From an uncultured virus (IMG/VR IMGVR_UViG_3300046507_000662) (taxonomy: Duplodnaviria; Heunggongvirae; Uroviricota; Caudoviricetes), in the IMG/VR virus record IMGVR_UViG_3300046507_000662: 64,000 nt of DNA. One strand, written 5' to 3'. Below, piece after piece: positions 23,002-35,243 of the stretch (positions within the stretch are counted from its first letter, which is position 1; each line of letters begins with the position of its first letter). A program made the translations under genes and the position numbers. The notes beneath the pieces are model-generated. The model searched no databases, had not been told where the DNA came from, and saw only the letters and a program-made list of their open reading frames with translations.

Positions 23002-23024
23002 TTGTCAGTGCCGTACCGCACGAT
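23002..23024 (+). promoter_or_regulatory. RecA-NDp/PafBC-like promoter
   Basis: TTGTCAGTG-N8-CACGAT. Confidence 0.55.
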
Positions 23025-23063: not shown

Positions 23064-23780
23064 TTGGACGCAGCAGACTCCTCCGCCCTCACCGACGACC
23101 AGTACTCCGACATCCTGTCCAGCCAGGTCCACCCGAAGTTCCGGGACCCGGACGTGTGGAACGCACTCACCAGCCCCGAGAACATCGAACGCACCCGAAC
23201 GGTGCTGACCGACATGAACCAGCGGACCGCGAACACGCTGCGGCGGAAGAGGTCCGAGCGGGAGGTGTTCGAGCAGGAGTGCCGGGCCCGTGGCGCGGCA
23301 GGCAAGCAGGCCTGGTTCGAGTCCCGGCCTGCGTACGAGGACTCCAGGCGCAAGACCGCGGCGTTCCATCAGAAGGTGCTGGCCGCAATCTCGGAGCTGA
23401 CCAAGCTGAGCAAGGACCGCAACCGGACTGACAACCACAAGAACATCAACGAGGCCCGGGAGACGCTGCGGAAGCTTGCGGTGGCCGTGCAGCGGCACCA
23501 GGCGATGCACGCCAAGTCCGGAACGATCGCCGGCCAGGAAGACTACGAGCTGTGGCAGCTCCTGGACCGTCTCACCGTGCCGTACGGCCCGAACCAGGAG
23601 CGCACCAGCCTGCGAACGATGCTCGACTTCTACTGGACCGACGTGGAACCGACCACGGCGGCCGACGAGGACCGGGCGGTGGCGGAACGCACGATGCGGC
23701 AGGCGCCGGCCGGACGCTCCGCGCAGTACGCGGGCGTTCCGCGGGCCCGGCACGTCGGCAGCGAGAAACCCCTCACCTAG
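23064..23780 (+). CDS. Helical hypothetical protein
   Basis: RBS GGAGG, TTG start, coding-like. Confidence 0.7.
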   Translation: MDAADSSALTDDQYSDILSSQVHPKFRDPDVWNALTSPENIERTRTVLTDMNQRTANTLRRKRSEREVFEQECRARGAAGKQAWFESRPAYEDSRRKTAAFHQKVLAAISELTKLSKDRNRTDNHKNINEARETLRKLAVAVQRHQAMHAKSGTIAGQEDYELWQLLDRLTVPYGPNQERTSLRTMLDFYWTDVEPTTAADEDRAVAERTMRQAPAGRSAQYAGVPRARHVGSEKPLT

Positions 23781-30715: not shown

Positions 30716-31831
30716 TCAGGCCGTCGGCTGGCCGGTCTTGGGTACGTCGGCCAATGGGGCGCTGTCATCGAAGTGGTAGTCGGGCGCCAAGGCGAACTTG
30801 CAGCCCAGCTGCGCCGGCGACACCGCACCGAACTTTGTCTTCAACACCGACACGTGATCCGTCAGGGTTCGAAGGCTGATGCCCAGCCGGGCCGCCGTCC
30901 TGCTCTGCTGGATTCCGTCGACCATGTCCCGCAGGATCACCCGCTCCAACGGTGTCGTCCGCAAGCCGGCACTCGGGCCTGACACGGTGTCGACGTCCGG
31001 GTGCCCGCCGCGCGTATCACCGTCCCACTCGACCGCGACTTCCGTCCTGGGTTCTCCCCGCCACAGCTGGGCGAGCTGCCAGGCGTTCATGAACGCGCCC
31101 ACGATGAAGCCGATCGCCGCAGGGTCTGTCACATGCCAGGCCGCGTGCGCGGGTGAGCCCTCCACCACGTAGTCCGACACGAACGCGTGCCGGCGGTCGA
31201 TGACGATGGCCCGCTCGTACGGGGCGACCAGCGTGCGGTACTCGGCCCCGTGACCGGTCATCATCCCGATATGGGAGGCCATGGCGGAGGACTGACGGAC
31301 GCTGTCCCGGTACAGGGTGCACAGGGACACCCCCCGGTTGAGGGCGGCCCGGTCGCGGTCCACTGACCGTTCCAGCTGTTCCTTGGTTCGGGGTCCGCCG
31401 GGCTGGGCGGCGAGGATTTCCGTGCGGGCGGAGTTGAGCAGGTCATCGAGTCGGGTGTTCACTACTGCGGCGTCGTCGATGTACTCGCTGCCGCCGCCGG
31501 CCAGGGAGCGGCCGCGGTCGAACTCCTTGGTCAGCTGTTCCGACATCAGGTGCAAGGTGCGCATTTTGGCGACCCGTTCGGCGGCCTCGGTGAGCAATGC
31601 CTCGAGGGTGCGCTGCTTTATGTCCTCGGGATTCAGGGCGACTGGTCTGTCCCCACCCCCGGAATCGATCTTCACAAACCCCAGGTCGGCCAACCGGGCA
31701 ACGGAATCCGCACACCCCTCCGGCACCCCTCCACCGTCCGCGATCAGGCCAAACACCTGAACATCATCAGCAGACAGGAATCCCTGATCACTCGATCCGA
31801 AATGCATGGCCAAAGCTTGATCCCCCGTCAA
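30716..31831 (-). CDS. TrmB/PLD-like sensor domain plus LuxR-type HTH transcriptional regulator
   Basis: N-terminal wHTH-like LADLGFV; central ARTEILAAQPGG...GVSLCTLY...AIVIDRRHAFV; C-terminal TAARLGISLRTLTDHVSVLKTKFG...QLG; start may be 31807. Confidence 0.8.
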   Translation of the reverse strand: MTGDQALAMHFGSSDQGFLSADDVQVFGLIADGGGVPEGCADSVARLADLGFVKIDSGGGDRPVALNPEDIKQRTLEALLTEAAERVAKMRTLHLMSEQLTKEFDRGRSLAGGGSEYIDDAAVVNTRLDDLLNSARTEILAAQPGGPRTKEQLERSVDRDRAALNRGVSLCTLYRDSVRQSSAMASHIGMMTGHGAEYRTLVAPYERAIVIDRRHAFVSDYVVEGSPAHAAWHVTDPAAIGFIVGAFMNAWQLAQLWRGEPRTEVAVEWDGDTRGGHPDVDTVSGPSAGLRTTPLERVILRDMVDGIQQSRTAARLGISLRTLTDHVSVLKTKFGAVSPAQLGCKFALAPDYHFDDSAPLADVPKTGQPTA

Positions 31832-32088
31832 AAATACGGCCCTGCACTGCGCTTACACGCAATGCGTAGATACGCAGCACACAAAGGTTGAGGATGAAAA
31901 GACTCTACGGCAGTTTAGTTGCGGGGCGTCCCCCGGCGCTCGTACTCCACGTCCTCCCCACGCACCACACGCGCCTACTGCCAGAAAGCGCGCCACACGC
32001 AACGGGATTCGCAGCGGACATGGAGCACGAGGAAACCGGGACGGCGCCCCGTTATCGTTCCCCGGACAACCCAAGAAGGGACCCGCCC

Positions 32089-32313
32089 GTGAGCAAGCGC
32101 ATCCGCTGCATCGTCGCCGGCCTCACCCTCGCCACCGCCGCAGCGACCGGCGCCGTCATCACCCACACCGTCGCCGCCCCCCGCATAGACACCACCTGGG
32201 GCGCCTCCGACACCGCGGACGACACCACGTGGGGCAGCGAGCCTGTCGACCTTCCCGTCACCCTTCCCGTCGACCTGCCGACCATCACGCCCCTCGACAC
32301 CACCTGGGGATAG
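32089..32313 (+). CDS. Secreted precursor peptide with three DTTWG repeats
   Basis: RBS AGAAGGGA, GTG; basic N-terminus plus hydrophobic signal; DTTWG x3, the last at the C-terminus. Confidence 0.8.
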   Translation: MSKRIRCIVAGLTLATAAATGAVITHTVAAPRIDTTWGASDTADDTTWGSEPVDLPVTLPVDLPTITPLDTTWG

Positions 32314-32506
32314 AGGCACGCGGATCCCTGCCTGAACCGGCCCGTCCGCCTGACGTGGCGTGGGAGACTCGCCGTGGCGCTGGTGCCGTGTACGTCCCCC
32401 GTGGCGGCACCAGCCGACACCTCCCGGCCGCAATCCGCATTGCCGCCCGGGGAACCCTGTGGCCCGCGTCTCTGGGGAGACCGGGCCACAGGCATGTCCG
32501 AGGGCG

Positions 32507-32529
32507 TTGTCAGTGCCGCATGCCATAGT
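32507..32529 (+). promoter_or_regulatory. RecA-NDp/PafBC-like promoter
   Basis: TTGTCAGTG-N8-CATAGT. Confidence 0.6.
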
Positions 32530-32557
32530 GGGCGGTCTGGTGCGCGACACACCGGCC

Positions 32558-32629
32558 TTGCTCCCCGCTGCTGCGGGGGTGTTCCAGTTCAGTACTTCGA
32601 GTTGTCCCCGCCGATGCGGGGTTAGCCCC
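32558..32629 (+). CRISPR. Degenerate type I-E-like mini-array (2 repeats, 14-nt spacer), no cas genes in window
   Basis: TTGCTCCCCGCTGCTGCGGGGGTGTTCCA and GTTGTCCCCGCCGATGCGGGGTTAGCCCC; both 29 nt with CCCCGC-N4-GCGGGG stem and 8-nt 3' tail. Confidence 0.6.
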
Positions 32630-32657
32630 GGCCCTTCTGGGTCGGGGCTCTTTGTTT
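32624..32657 (+). terminator. Intrinsic terminator
   Basis: AGCCCCGGCCC-TTCT-GGGTCGGGGCT followed by CTTTGTTT. Confidence 0.75.
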
Positions 32658-32666
32658 CCCCTCAAA

Positions 32667-32716
32667 ACGGTTGACGCATGCGTTAACCGTCTGTCATAGT
32701 TAACGCATGCGGAAAC
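32667..32716 (+). promoter_or_regulatory. Strong promoter with two palindromic operators
   Basis: TTGACG...CATAGT; ACGGTTGACGCATGCGTTAACCGT and GTTAACGCATGCGGAAAC. Confidence 0.7.
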
Positions 32717-32741
32717 ATCCGCTTGCAGGGAGGGGAACCTG

Positions 32742-33590
32742 ATGAACACCACCGCCGCAGCCACCCAGGCCAACGTCACCGTCGCCACCATCCGCACCTG
32801 GTGCCGCGTCGGAGCCGTCGCCGCCGTCAAGCAGGCCGGCCGCTGGATCATCGACATCGCCTCCCTCGCCGCCCGCATTGCCATCGGCCAGAGGAAGGCC
32901 CGCATGACCGACGAGCCGAAGTACCGCGTCGAAGAAGGAAGCACCATCCAGTACGGCAAAGCCCGCACCACGTACTCCATCGTCCGCACCGACGGAACCC
33001 CTGCCGGATACGGTCCCGGCAAGGACCTGCGCATCCACGGCGAGCCCTTCTTCACCGAGGACCTCGCCAAGTTCTACGCCAAGTTCTACGAGAACACCCC
33101 CGACGGCTTCCGCATCGAAAAGGCCCTGCCCCGCGCCGGCCGCATAGACCGCACCACCTACTGGGTCGTCACCGGATCCACCAAAGGCGACCCGAGCGAC
33201 CTGCGGATGCGGATCGAAGCCGACTGGACCGCCGAAGGCAAGAACACCCCCGCCGGCACCACCGTCGTGGACATCCTCATCCAGTGGGCGAATCAGCATG
33301 CCGCGGGCGCCGAACAGCGCATCGCGGAGAAGGCGGAGAAGGACGCCATCGCCGCCGCCGAAGCGACCGTCCGCGAGGCCCGCGAAGAGCAGCTCGCCGA
33401 GGCCCGCCGCACCAAGGGCGAGCTGGCCACCGCCCGACAGGTCGACTACATCCTCCAGCTCCTGACCGTGCGGGCCCGCACCGGCGAGGGCGGCGGATTC
33501 TTCCAGGGCCCCACCGACCGCGCTGGAATCGAAGAACTGTCCAAGGCCGAGGCTTCCACCTACATCACCTCACTGAAGGGCGACTACTGA
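32742..33590 (+). CDS. Protein with N-terminal MerR/HTH_17-like domain and unknown C-terminal domains
   Basis: AAATQANVTVATIRTWCRVGAVAAVKQAGRWII; RBS GGAGG. Confidence 0.8.
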   Translation: MNTTAAATQANVTVATIRTWCRVGAVAAVKQAGRWIIDIASLAARIAIGQRKARMTDEPKYRVEEGSTIQYGKARTTYSIVRTDGTPAGYGPGKDLRIHGEPFFTEDLAKFYAKFYENTPDGFRIEKALPRAGRIDRTTYWVVTGSTKGDPSDLRMRIEADWTAEGKNTPAGTTVVDILIQWANQHAAGAEQRIAEKAEKDAIAAAEATVREAREEQLAEARRTKGELATARQVDYILQLLTVRARTGEGGGFFQGPTDRAGIEELSKAEASTYITSLKGDY

Positions 33591-34069
33591 TGAACCGCAT
33601 CACCATCCACGACGCCGACGGCATCCGACTGGGCTACTTCGATCTGGACGCCGCCACCCACATCCTGGAAGAGGACAGCTACTGGGACGGCAGCAACCAC
33701 CGCGGCAAGGTGTCCGGCCTCCAGACCACCCGCTCCGACCTGTACCGCACCAAGGGCGGACGCTGGGTTGAACACTGTGACGCCAGGCGCGAGTTCAACG
33801 GGCCCGACCGCTGGAGTTTCCTCACCGACGACGAGGCCCGCGACTGGGTCATCAAGAGCGGAGGCGACGAAGCGGAGTCCGTGCTGGCCGAGCACTTCCC
33901 TGACGCCCCCGACGAATCCGGTCCGAGCCTTGGAGGCAGGCCCACGGTGGGGCCCAAGGTTGAGACCCGCCTTGACCCCGACGACATCAAGAAGGTCGAC
34001 GACCGCGCCGCGCAGGAAGGGGTCAGCCGCGCAGAGATGCTCCGCCGCCTGATCGTCGCCGGCCTCTGA
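33590..34069 (+). CDS. Protein with C-terminal ribbon-helix-helix (CopG-like) domain
   Basis: GRPTVGPKVETRL...DDRAAQEGVSRAEMLRRLI; TGATG coupling. Confidence 0.8.
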   Translation: MNRITIHDADGIRLGYFDLDAATHILEEDSYWDGSNHRGKVSGLQTTRSDLYRTKGGRWVEHCDARREFNGPDRWSFLTDDEARDWVIKSGGDEAESVLAEHFPDAPDESGPSLGGRPTVGPKVETRLDPDDIKKVDDRAAQEGVSRAEMLRRLIVAGL

Positions 34070-34147
34070 ACGCACGAAACGGTCCGCAGTTCCAAGAGAT
34101 GCGGACCACAGCCTCTCATCCGTCGATGGATGAGAGGCTGTGGCACG

Positions 34148-34489
34148 TCATCCCTCGAGGTAGCCGAGCTCCGAGTCCGGACGGCAATGCGAACACGCGG
34201 GCACACCCTCCACCAGGGCTCGCAACGCCGCTTCCCGCCTCACGCCTTTCGAGCGCTTCCCCGTCATGTGGCAGCCGCCCACGTGCACGTACACGGGCGG
34301 CGTGTCCCGGCTCAGCGCCTGCTCGATCAGCCAGTCCGGTGTCGGCGGCCGCGCCTCCGCACCGCGCTGCCGCTCCTGCTCCCGGCGCTGCAGGTCCGCC
34401 TTCTTCTCCCGCACCCGCGCGAGAGTGAGCGCCAGGTACGTCTCGATCGCTTCGAGTCGCGGCAGGTCAGGCGGCAGATCATCGTGCAT
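34148..34489 (-). CDS. DUF6233-like protein
   Basis: VHVGGC...ALRAL...ACSHCRPDSELG. Confidence 0.75.
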   Translation of the reverse strand: MHDDLPPDLPRLEAIETYLALTLARVREKKADLQRREQERQRGAEARPPTPDWLIEQALSRDTPPVYVHVGGCHMTGKRSKGVRREAALRALVEGVPACSHCRPDSELGYLEG

Positions 34490-34497
34490 GTGTTCGA
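34482..34497. promoter_or_regulatory. LexA (SOS) box over a probable leaderless start
   Basis: Minus strand TCGAAC-ACAT-GCACGA, overlapping the end of a TACACT -10. Confidence 0.6.
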
Positions 34498-34506
34498 GTG
34501 TAGGCA

Positions 34507-34550
34507 CAAAAAAAGACGGCCCGCCGCTCCGGAGAACGACGGGCCGCCTT
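34507..34550 (-). terminator. Intrinsic terminator of leftward operon
   Basis: GC hairpin followed by a T7 run on the minus strand. Confidence 0.65.
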
Positions 34551-34592
34551 CGTATGGGCGCCCCCCAATGTGGTGCACCAGCACCGTACGCC

Positions 34593-35243
34593 TCATTCCC
34601 TGTACGGGTGAAGTACCGCGTCCACCCTCGCGGCCACCGCGGCCGCACGCCGAGGATCCCGGGCCTTCGGAGCGGCCGCCAGCGTCGGGACCAGCCAGTC
34701 CGGGCCAAGCACGTACACCGGGTCCGTCATCCCGGGCATCCGGACGTCCAGGTGCCCGCCGGCCACCGGGGAGCCGTGCACCACCAGTAGTGGAAGCACC
34801 TTCACCCCCGGCAGGCCGAGCGCCCGGGATATCCGCTCCGCGTATCCGGCGACCTTCTCCACCTGGCCGTGCCGGTCCTCGTCTCCGCAGTACACCCGGC
34901 CGCGGACCAGCCTGGTGGGCCAGTTCCGGCGCCATGCCTTCGTGTCCAGCACCACCACTGCCGTCCCGCACGGGGAGACGAGGACCGTGTCCACGTTCCA
35001 CCGGGCCCCGGCTAATCGGAGGTCGTGCCGGATCGTCCAGCCCGCCTGTACGAGGGGTGCGAGGAGGGCTTCGGTGGCGGCCTCGCCCTGGGCTCCGTGC
35101 GCCCACAGGGCCGCCTTGGCGTCCGCGCGGGCCGCGGCCGGGTTCAGGCCCGCCCACGCGGTGACACGCCGCCACACGCCCCGCCGGGCATGCTCACGGA
35201 TCGCCTTAGCCTTCGCGGCCGCCGAGTTCTGCGGGGCGCTCAC
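34593..35243 (-). CDS. NERD-domain nuclease-like protein
   Basis: GAQGE...HDL...NVDTVLVSP...LDTKAW; contains a TTA codon. Confidence 0.8.
   Translation of the reverse strand: MSAPQNSAAAKAKAIREHARRGVWRRVTAWAGLNPAAARADAKAALWAHGAQGEAATEALLAPLVQAGWTIRHDLRLAGARWNVDTVLVSPCGTAVVVLDTKAWRRNWPTRLVRGRVYCGDEDRHGQVEKVAGYAERISRALGLPGVKVLPLLVVHGSPVAGGHLDVRMPGMTDPVYVLGPDWLVPTLAAAPKARDPRRAAAVAARVDAVLHPYRE

Follow-up and report, generated by a model that had tools for sequence, protein, structure and literature searches.

We propose that the unit at positions 32507–32657 of the 64,000-nt stretch of DNA analysed here (the window) forms a gene complete in itself, the product of which would be a crRNA-like anti-CRISPR RNA of the “Cracr” kind, a reading to which we assign a probability of about 0.72. 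Its observed basis is the anatomy of the unit (Table 1), the homology to mini-arrays of host cas loci, guide–target matches that covary, and a mobile context devoid of cas genes. With such a gene the element would most likely make the host silence its own CRISPR defence, as far as this can be read from the sequences.

Table 1. Features of the crRNA-like unit (positions in the window)
Feature	Coordinates	Strand	Description
Promoter motif TTGTCAGTG-N8-CATAGT	32507..32529	+	RecA-NDp/PafBC type, without −35 hexamer; TTGTCAGTG at 32507–32515, then 8 bases, CATAGT at 32524–32529
5′ leader hairpin	32537..32555	+	6-bp stem, 7-nt loop; at the start of the predicted primary transcript
Repeat-like unit 1	32558..32586	+	CCCCGC-TGCT-GCGGGG stem-loop, then 8-nt GTGTTCCA
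14-nt spacer-like guide GTTCAGTACTTCGA	32587..32600	+	homologous to host mini-array spacers
Repeat-like unit 2	32601..32629	+	GTTGT, then CCCCGC-CGAT-GCGGGG stem-loop; stem-loop sequence CCCCGCCGATGCGGGG
Intrinsic terminator	32624..32657	+	11-pair stem (9 G-C), 4-nt loop, then CTTTGTTT

The two repeat-like units are identical at 19 of 29 positions (own count), and both have the type I-E geometry, in which the 29 nt of the repeat comprise a G+C stem and, 3′ of it, an 8-nt segment. With its 14 nt, the spacer departs from the type I-E norm of ~32 nt (61-bp period). In the whole 64 kb the stem motif CCCCGC-N4-GCGGGG has two copies, both of them in the unit; 0.14 occurrences are expected, and none of 100 shuffles reached two. 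The 8-nt segment of repeat 1 is predicted to form the 5′ handle after Cas6e cleavage, and 32601–32621 of repeat 2 the 3′ handle. The last 6 nt of repeat 2 (32624–32629) fall inside the terminator stem, which spans 32624–32649. A terminator scan yielded this one terminator versus 0.3 expected in shuffles, and it is also present in the fold. Folding of 32536–32660 gives the leader hairpin in the MFE as well as in the centroid structure. For the whole predicted transcript the fold has a z value of −2.9, and equal folding was reached in one of 200 shuffles.

Rfam at the gathering threshold returned no family for the whole window, while a permissive Rfam search gave sub-threshold matches alone, driven by the terminator hairpin; a tRNA/tmRNA search of the window found none. 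The earlier note on this DNA had described the promoter motif, the 5′ hairpin, the repeats, the 14-nt spacer, and the terminator, and each of them was found where it had been placed. Recounting also reproduced the repeat identity given there and, in both repeats, the stem followed by 8 nt. Two further claims, that no credible ORF lies at the unit and that the window has no cas gene, agree with the analysis: a GC3-based gene call placed no ORF across the unit, none of 54 scanned ORFs contains a Cas Pfam domain, and tblastn with casA, cas3, and casB gave no match in the 64-kb window.

The earlier note had also called the repeats I-E-like and had asked for their alignment to CRISPR repeat databases and to the arrays of the host; alignment to real arrays bears the claim out. 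In a blastn search of plasmids, a true type I-E array, located between cas3 and casA on a plasmid of Streptomyces genisteinicus, had repeats with 92.9% identity to repeat 1 over 28 nt. The Streptomyces genome that contains the matching host locus discussed below (genome G002, locus L019) has large arrays with a 61-bp period, as have the real arrays in G003. The array repeats of G002 have the same stem as those of the window and similar loops, some copies also have the same GTGTTCC handle, and the stem-loop of repeat 2, CCCCGCCGATGCGGGG, is identical to that of a G002 repeat variant. Judged by these alignments, the repeats of the window are genuine Streptomyces type I-E repeats.

To find related units, the 256-nt region was compared with plasmids by blastn, which gave 16 records, nine of which were examined. 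In five of the nine, the match covers the spacer and repeat 2, and in two of these most of repeat 1 as well; all five are large Streptomyces plasmids with a type I-E locus, and the match falls into the intergenic region between cas3 and casA. The other four records comprise one cas-less 88-kb plasmid with its own terminator, the true S. genisteinicus array, and two matches to the promoter only. A scan for the pattern of the unit, with each species represented by one genome, identified 19 loci, 14 of them in Streptomyces; the five outside this genus have no hairpins and were rejected as chance matches. In all, 19 units were analysed, that of the window among them, and all have a spacer of 14 nt, as demanded by the search pattern. 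A pattern scan of viral_contigs gave 0 matches, with the window's own record perhaps outside the scanned set, and the unit was unmatched in a blastn search of phages.

Of the 19 units analysed, 11 occupy the interval from cas3 to casA and are without exception antisense to both genes; for the other eight, that of the window included, there is no cas gene up to a distance of 2.5 kb. Their spacers are clearly homologous (consensus GTTC..T.CTT...). The repeat-spacer-repeat layout described in the earlier note is thus conserved in related elements, i.e. in the 11 host loci and seven other stand-alone copies. These likenesses support the view that the unit of the window is a copy of a CreR-type mini-array of a host cas locus. 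Terminators equivalent to that of the window follow the unit in L001/L010, L017, and L018, and by eye L025 has a similar inverted repeat there, rich in G+C and with a T-run; promoter and terminator of the window's unit take the place of an inverted repeat that flanks the host unit. In the host loci, a conserved −10-like GTAGGCT is present ~35 nt upstream of the first repeat and resembles a promoter of the mini-array itself.

The window itself encodes ParA, an ERF recombinase, DUF5131, a DNA methylase, NERD, and DUF6197 (Pfam scan of 54 ORFs), and a scan of 30 ORFs against PHROGs yielded no named structural phage family. A virus record of 65.6 kb in IMG/VR is 100% identical to the window over 601 nt, and among named sequences the closest to the window are circular plasmids of 88–93 kb from Streptomyces. 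The element is probably a plasmid- or phage-plasmid-like one from Streptomyces, although it may also be a phage. Of 24 sequencing runs listed for the stretch, 23 rhizosphere DNA metagenomes and one soil metatranscriptome, four were aligned with it. In the metatranscriptome, two contigs cover 32747–32888 only and then diverge from the window, which indicates that they stem from relatives of the neighbouring gene; the small RNA lies outside the part they cover.

Several relatives show how the unit is embedded. L018 is syntenic with the window over 31119–34976 at ~73% identity, and L017 matches it downstream of the unit. Both have the same promoter motif, followed by a longer array, the last unit of which is the 14-nt unit (spacers of 21, 18, and 14 nt in L018 and of 20, 19, 31, and 14 nt in L017). 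Two closer plasmid relatives have kept the promoter motif and contain neither the mini-array nor the downstream HTH gene, showing that the cassette is accessory and dispensable. The 88-kb plasmid CP108805 (L010) shares 10.4 kb of the window's 64 kb at 67–82% identity, and its unit is at another position. Altogether, the stand-alone unit occurs at no fewer than three unrelated positions or in as many unrelated element lineages.

This distribution bears on the possibility that the unit is an inert recombination remnant of a host cas locus, or that its guide borrows Cascade against genes of the element itself or of competitors. Compatible with these possibilities are the absence of the unit from the two close relatives and the one near match to the guide core within the window, at 31457. 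Against them stand the unit's own promoter and terminator, in place of the host's flanking inverted repeat, and its recurrence in at least three unrelated positions or lineages. The near match has GGT for a PAM and a mismatch at position 11 and was therefore rejected as a self-target; two or more matches were obtained in three of 100 shuffles. We regard both versions as highly improbable, the least probable of the readings weighed here.

In the proposed mechanism the guide addresses a host sequence, and the host loci indicate which. In all 11 loci, the best match of the locus' own spacer lies 109–142 nt upstream on the same strand (tied best in L004); the target site is 114–130 nt upstream of the casA start. 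The PAM at the target is AAG in five, AAT in four, and AAC in two of the 11 loci. Positions 1–5 and 7–11 are all paired in nine of the 11, and nine of these ten positions are paired in L003 and L004. Positions 6 and 12 are mostly unpaired. In Cascade every sixth base of the guide is flipped out, and the host guides thus follow the pairing pattern of Cascade. Moreover, spacers and targets covary. At position 5 both have A in L016, L019, L022, and L024, at position 8 both have A in L008 and L019, and at position 9 both have T in L014.

By eye, the target in the 11 loci lies on the casA strand between a −35-like TTG[T/C/A]AA and, 17–18 nt downstream, a TGn-extended −10-like nAnnnT, the spacing being conserved. 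A sigma-70 scan of two host intergenic regions found no promoter, so that the reading as a casA promoter derives from the aligned hexamers. On this basis, the target is predicted to be inside the casA core promoter.

The site could also be read in the other direction. It is possible in principle that it controls a CreT-like toxin that is transcribed toward the mini-array, so that the mobile copy would be a mimic of a CreA-type antitoxin, silencing the toxin while other factors disable Cascade. In favour of this, a −35-like TTGCAC on the mini-array strand is found immediately upstream of the target, the interval of ~100 nt between target and mini-array is partly conserved, and type I-F Cracr RNAs that silence CreT have been described (10.1101/2024.10.29.618823). 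Against this, inspection of the interval by eye in the 11 loci revealed no conserved ORF or start codon, the −10-like GTAGGCT close to the first repeat looks like the mini-array's promoter, and the promoter reading on the casA strand fits 11 of 11 loci. We consider the antitoxin mimic very unlikely.

The guide of the window matches the target of L019 in G002 (AAG PAM, then GTTCAGTACTTTCA) at the contiguous positions 1–11 and at position 14, i.e. at 10 of 10 core positions and 12 of 14 overall, whereas the RNA of L019 itself matches at 10 of 14. The two guides agree with one another at positions 1–5 and 7–12. A search with the spacer and its PAM against host cas promoters, which the earlier note had suggested, thus gave a match with an AAG PAM at L019, and together with the homology to host mini-arrays this supports its central claim of a stand-alone crRNA mimic. 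That note had left two modes of action side by side, a decoy for Cascade subunits and a non-cutting guide. The PAM-flanked match upstream of casA gives direct sequence support to the guide, and decoy competition may act in addition. Including that of the window, five of nine stand-alone spacers match at least one of the 11 host targets perfectly in the core, and the other four match at nine of ten core positions. A target of the window type with conserved flanks was present in one of 401 Streptomyces genomes, G002, and in none for the reversed control. This rarity of matching targets and the dispensability of the unit in two close relatives are points that speak against the anti-CRISPR reading.

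A pure decoy, comparable to Racr, would soak up Cas6e and Cascade subunits, and its guide would merely have been inherited from the host unit. Both hairpins of the window are closer to the canonical array repeats than are the first repeats of the host mini-arrays, which would favour competition. In contrast, at the variable positions 5, 8, and 9 the guides of the stand-alone copies show the same classes as the host targets, and the core match to a host target is perfect in the five spacers just mentioned. In addition, the guide of the window fits the L019 target better than the RNA of that locus does, position 6 included, which is not expected from passive inheritance. We therefore view a decoy function as the sole activity as unlikely.

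Mobile copies and host loci of the same class occur together in single strains. CP108805 and L008, a I-E locus on a 239-kb plasmid, are both present in strain NBC_00873, and the guide of the former (GTTCGTTACTTCAC) differs from the target of the latter (AAT PAM, then GTTCGCTACTTCAA) at positions 6 and 14 only. L020 and L014 likewise share one genome, and guide and target are of the same class. We extracted 115 spacers from NBC_00873, 112 from the chromosomal I-E system and three from the 239-kb plasmid. Six of the 115, all chromosomal, match the co-resident 88-kb plasmid at 28–31 of 32 positions; an AAG PAM is present in three of the six, one of which matches at 31 of 32 positions with the sole mismatch at position 12. 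These matches indicate that the plasmid family is under pressure from I-E systems. For the window, 80 spacers (73 from G002 and seven from the S. genisteinicus plasmid array) gave no match beyond chance, the best being 18 of 19, which is another point against the anti-CRISPR reading.

The chromosomal I-E system of NBC_00873 belongs to another clade (casA ~31% identical), and its cas3–casA interval contains neither a mini-array nor a target-like site. The guide route thus cannot explain the tolerance of the plasmid in this strain, for which one must assume that the RNA acts as a decoy, that the system is inactive, or that another inhibitor is at work. The location of the targeting spacers in a system that has no target site is a point in favour of the decoy, as only a decoy or another inhibitor would help there.

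The consensus of PafBC-dependent promoters is tGTCgg(N10)tA(N3)T, without a −35 element (PMC8635444). Two copies of TGTCAGTG-N9-A-N3-T are present in the window, at 23003 and 32508, versus 0.02 expected. The looser pattern TGTCRG-N11-A-N3-T is not enriched in the window (five versus 2.1 expected; six of 100 shuffles reached five). A sigma-70 scan at the unit found no −35/−10 pair. The same spacing is seen in three elements, with TGTCAG-N10-CATAGT in the window and L017 and TGTCGG-N10-CATAGT in L018, and the motif is thus kept in both syntenic relatives. Other sequences precede the stand-alone copies of L010 and L025, showing that the promoter link is specific to the lineage of the window.

In genome G002, TGTCRGTG-N9-A-N3-T was found 137 times versus nine times for the reversed control, and one copy is ~65 nt upstream of a RecA domain on the recA strand, which indicates a real promoter class of the host, of the RecA-NDp type. 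For 19 of the first 30 sites a start codon lies at most 8 nt from the motif (by a crude ORF rule), suggesting leaderless genes. Downstream of these 30 sites are five genes of DNA metabolism (holA, holB, recQ-like, radA-like, and an exonuclease), the rest being mostly metabolic or unknown. The PafBC-type promoter postulated in the earlier note accordingly stands at the level of the motif: it fits the consensus, is kept in two of two relatives, is abundant in G002, and precedes recA. Like RecA-NDp promoters, that of the window has the GTC element at the consensus spacing and no −35 hexamer; unlike them, its −10 hexamer starts with C and not with T, and it drives a predicted small RNA on a mobile element. 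A RecA-NDp promoter drives the UV-inducible Streptomyces gene SCO6735 (PMC5087735), and PafBC/RecA-NDp promoters of Actinobacteria are also treated in PMC8223512. The published record for Streptomyces is mixed, as a first search for the M. smegmatis motif, described in PMC9380542, did not show it to be conserved in S. venezuelae.

These observations can be combined into a mechanism. A transcript of ~120 nt would start near 32536 and end at the terminator, at times set by the promoter of the DNA-damage type. Host Cas6e would cut at the base of both hairpins and release an RNA of ~43 nt, composed of an 8-nt handle, the 14-nt guide, and a 21-nt hairpin. In Cascade, each Cas7 subunit covers ~6 nt of guide, and shortened guides in E. 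coli provide a further basis for relating guide length to subunit number. As 14 nt equals 32 minus 3 × 6, about three Cas7 subunits would be expected instead of six. The ~43-nt RNA would be loaded into such a shortened Cascade, and the guide would bring the complex to the AAG-flanked site in the predicted casA core promoter of a matching I-E locus, i.e. to the same site that the CreR-like mini-array between cas3 and casA of the host addresses. With 14 nt the guide would be too short to license Cas3, so that the complex would only block transcription of the Cascade operon. The RNA would also compete with immune crRNAs for Cas proteins.

A more far-reaching version of this proposal is that the I-E systems of Streptomyces and the plasmids or phage-plasmids share a class of 14-nt guides which build a Cascade with about three Cas7 subunits that can only repress, and that the mobile copy is induced by PafBC. 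We put this forward tentatively and regard it as rather doubtful in its entirety. If true, it would be the first anti-defence RNA wired to the damage sensor of the host and would contain the smallest natural Cascade guide, and production of an anti-CRISPR RNA would coincide exactly with the sensing of foreign or replicating DNA. Dependence of the promoter on PafBC would couple anti-defence to the sensing of ssDNA by the host. The 14-nt guide suggests a natural minimal repressor Cascade and potentially a compact design for CRISPRi guides. The covariation of guide classes with sites upstream of casA provides a concrete predicted target. The hijacking of CRISPR autoregulation by RNA would be extended to Streptomyces, a genus that is important for genetics and natural products and in which native I-E systems and large plasmids bear on strain engineering.

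The principle is already in print, though of recent date and for other bacteria, both for Cracr RNAs (Liu et al., 10.1101/2024.10.29.618823) and for phage copies of regulatory mini-arrays (10.1101/2023.03.03.530964), and autorepression of host cas genes by a type I-E regulator RNA has been described for CreR (Liu et al., 10.1101/2023.03.10.532045). Racr, like the predicted RNA of the window, belongs to the small non-coding RNAs that mimic CRISPR repeats and are encoded by mobile elements, but it is described as a solitary repeat unit that acts by sequestration (Camara-Wilpert et al., Nature 2023, PMC10651486), whereas the unit of the window comprises two repeats plus a guide for which a PAM-flanked match exists in a host.

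CreR is encoded by a degenerate mini-CRISPR with a guide that pairs in part with a site next to a PAM in the casA upstream region, as is the case here (10.1101/2023.03.10.532045). In that preprint, creR-like mini-CRISPRs were sought in cas intergenic sequences, to which the cas3–casA interval of the Streptomyces host units also belongs, and the target in Salmonella is ~140 bp upstream of casA. The Streptomyces units differ in that guide and target share 10–11 bases over a 14-nt spacer, versus 15 consecutive bases in Salmonella, and in that they are antisense to cas3 and casA. CreR lies inside the CRISPR-cas locus that it regulates, as do the 11 host units, whereas the unit of the window is outside any cas locus and would thus be a mimic and not CreR. 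The mini-arrays of Shmakov et al. are likewise located between cas3 and cas8, have mismatches at positions 6 and 12 and a canonical PAM, and near-identical phage copies were reported, some with shortened spacers (10.1101/2023.03.03.530964). In that preprint, repeats had to be at least 15 bp apart and typical spacers are 20–60 bp, compared with 14 nt here, so that the 14-nt class could have escaped. Streptomyces is not mentioned in two of its supplementary files.

The closest likeness is to the Cracr RNAs (10.1101/2024.10.29.618823). The 219 candidates listed in the preprint include 16 from plasmids, and I-E systems and Actinomycetota are represented. Both the Cracr RNAs and the unit of the window are found on mobile elements outside any cas locus, their repeats are like those of the CreR/CreA-type unit of the host, and the spacers are shorter than normal, which implies fewer backbone subunits; for I-F Cracr RNAs, short spacers were in fact linked to fewer subunits. 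The casA promoter of type I-E is a target in both cases, predicted here. At least nine PAM-proximal bases shared with the host regulator characterise a Cracr guide, and the guide of the window shares as many. Cracr arrays have several spacers, as have those of the window's relatives L018 and L017. The I-E array tested in the preprint has spacers of 24 and 21 nt versus 14 nt in the window, and a further difference is the window's promoter of the PafBC/RecA-NDp type.

The main text of the Cracr preprint uses “Actinomycetota” once and does not name Streptomyces, the genus of the window unit. The word “Streptomyces” is absent from the main texts of the Cracr, CreR, and mini-array preprints (the supplementary tables of both Liu et al. 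preprints aside), and a full-text literature search for the combination found nothing further. Judged by its sequence, the unit of the window fits the published Cracr class that hijacks cas autorepression of the CreR type, with two unusual features, the very short guide and the promoter of the DNA-damage type. New are the 14-nt guide class common to hosts and mobile copies, the explicit target that covaries with the guide, and the promoter of the RecA-NDp type.

In two rhizosphere metagenomes, contigs of related elements part from the window sequence right at the promoter of the mini-array (window 32496-32500) and retain TTGTC[A/G]GTG...GTGC, which fits a conserved promoter followed by a variable cargo slot. 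The promoter motif occurs a second time in the window; this copy is preceded by a hairpin, and an ORF begins 40 nt downstream of it. Several such motifs are also present in related plasmids, e.g. at 1356 and 1518 in L072.

In G002, a Streptomyces genome, the form TGTCRGTG-N9-A-N3-T was counted at 137 sites. Among the first 30 sites inspected, a start codon follows 3-8 nt after the motif in 19, suggesting that this promoter class drives mostly leaderless mRNAs in Streptomyces. In the window, the copy at the mini-array is predicted to drive a non-coding RNA.

Features in the window and multi-unit arrays in relatives
Feature	Sequence	Position	Remark
Second promoter-motif copy	window	23003-23024	GCGTTGTCAGTGCCG... 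then CACGAT
238-aa ORF	window	23064-23780	
Sigma-70-like promoter	window	32671-32712	TTGACG-18 nt-CATAGT; directly 3' of the unit terminator
282-aa protein, then 159-aa protein	window	32742-34069	159-aa protein with C-terminal RHH domain
Multi-unit array	L017	2320-2530	
Multi-unit array	L018	2383-2545	
Multi-unit array	L015	about 2400-2560	
Multi-unit array	L011	2480-2660	three or more units in tandem, spacers of 14 nt

The other repeats of the relatives' multi-unit arrays carry different handles (GATGGCCC, GATGGACCG, and GATGGTCCC), and their spacers are 18-32 nt long. The mini-arrays of the Streptomyces type I-E loci L003-L006, L014, L016, L021, and L022 are bracketed by an inverted repeat, with GCGTGTGGAGCGC upstream and GCGCTCCACACGC downstream. 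The L008/L019 clade has another flanking pair, GGCGTCCCC and GGGGACGC, which is still complementary, and therefore a long stem enclosing the host mini-array seems to have been kept through compensatory change. Mobile copies, in contrast, have a 5' hairpin and a terminator in place of this enclosing repeat.

Streptomyces sp. NBC_00873 (G003) harbors an 88-kb plasmid (contig C3), to which six spacers of its own chromosomal I-E arrays (L074) match at 28-31 of 32 positions, with an AAG PAM at three of the six matches. The plasmid co-resides with the chromosomal I-E system despite these matches, and this self-targeting signature suggests either an inhibitor or an inactive I-E system.

Downstream of the window's unit, two copies of ACGCATGCG flank the putative sigma-70-like promoter and look like an operator; this promoter would drive the gene for the 282-aa protein, which is annotated as HTH-containing in the record of a related plasmid, and the 159-aa protein with the RHH domain comes next. 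The syntenic relatives L017 and L018 encode full-length homologues (65-67% amino acid identity) at the equivalent position, and the mini-arrays of L020 and L015 are adjoined by partial matches. In its layout, this region resembles acr-aca loci.
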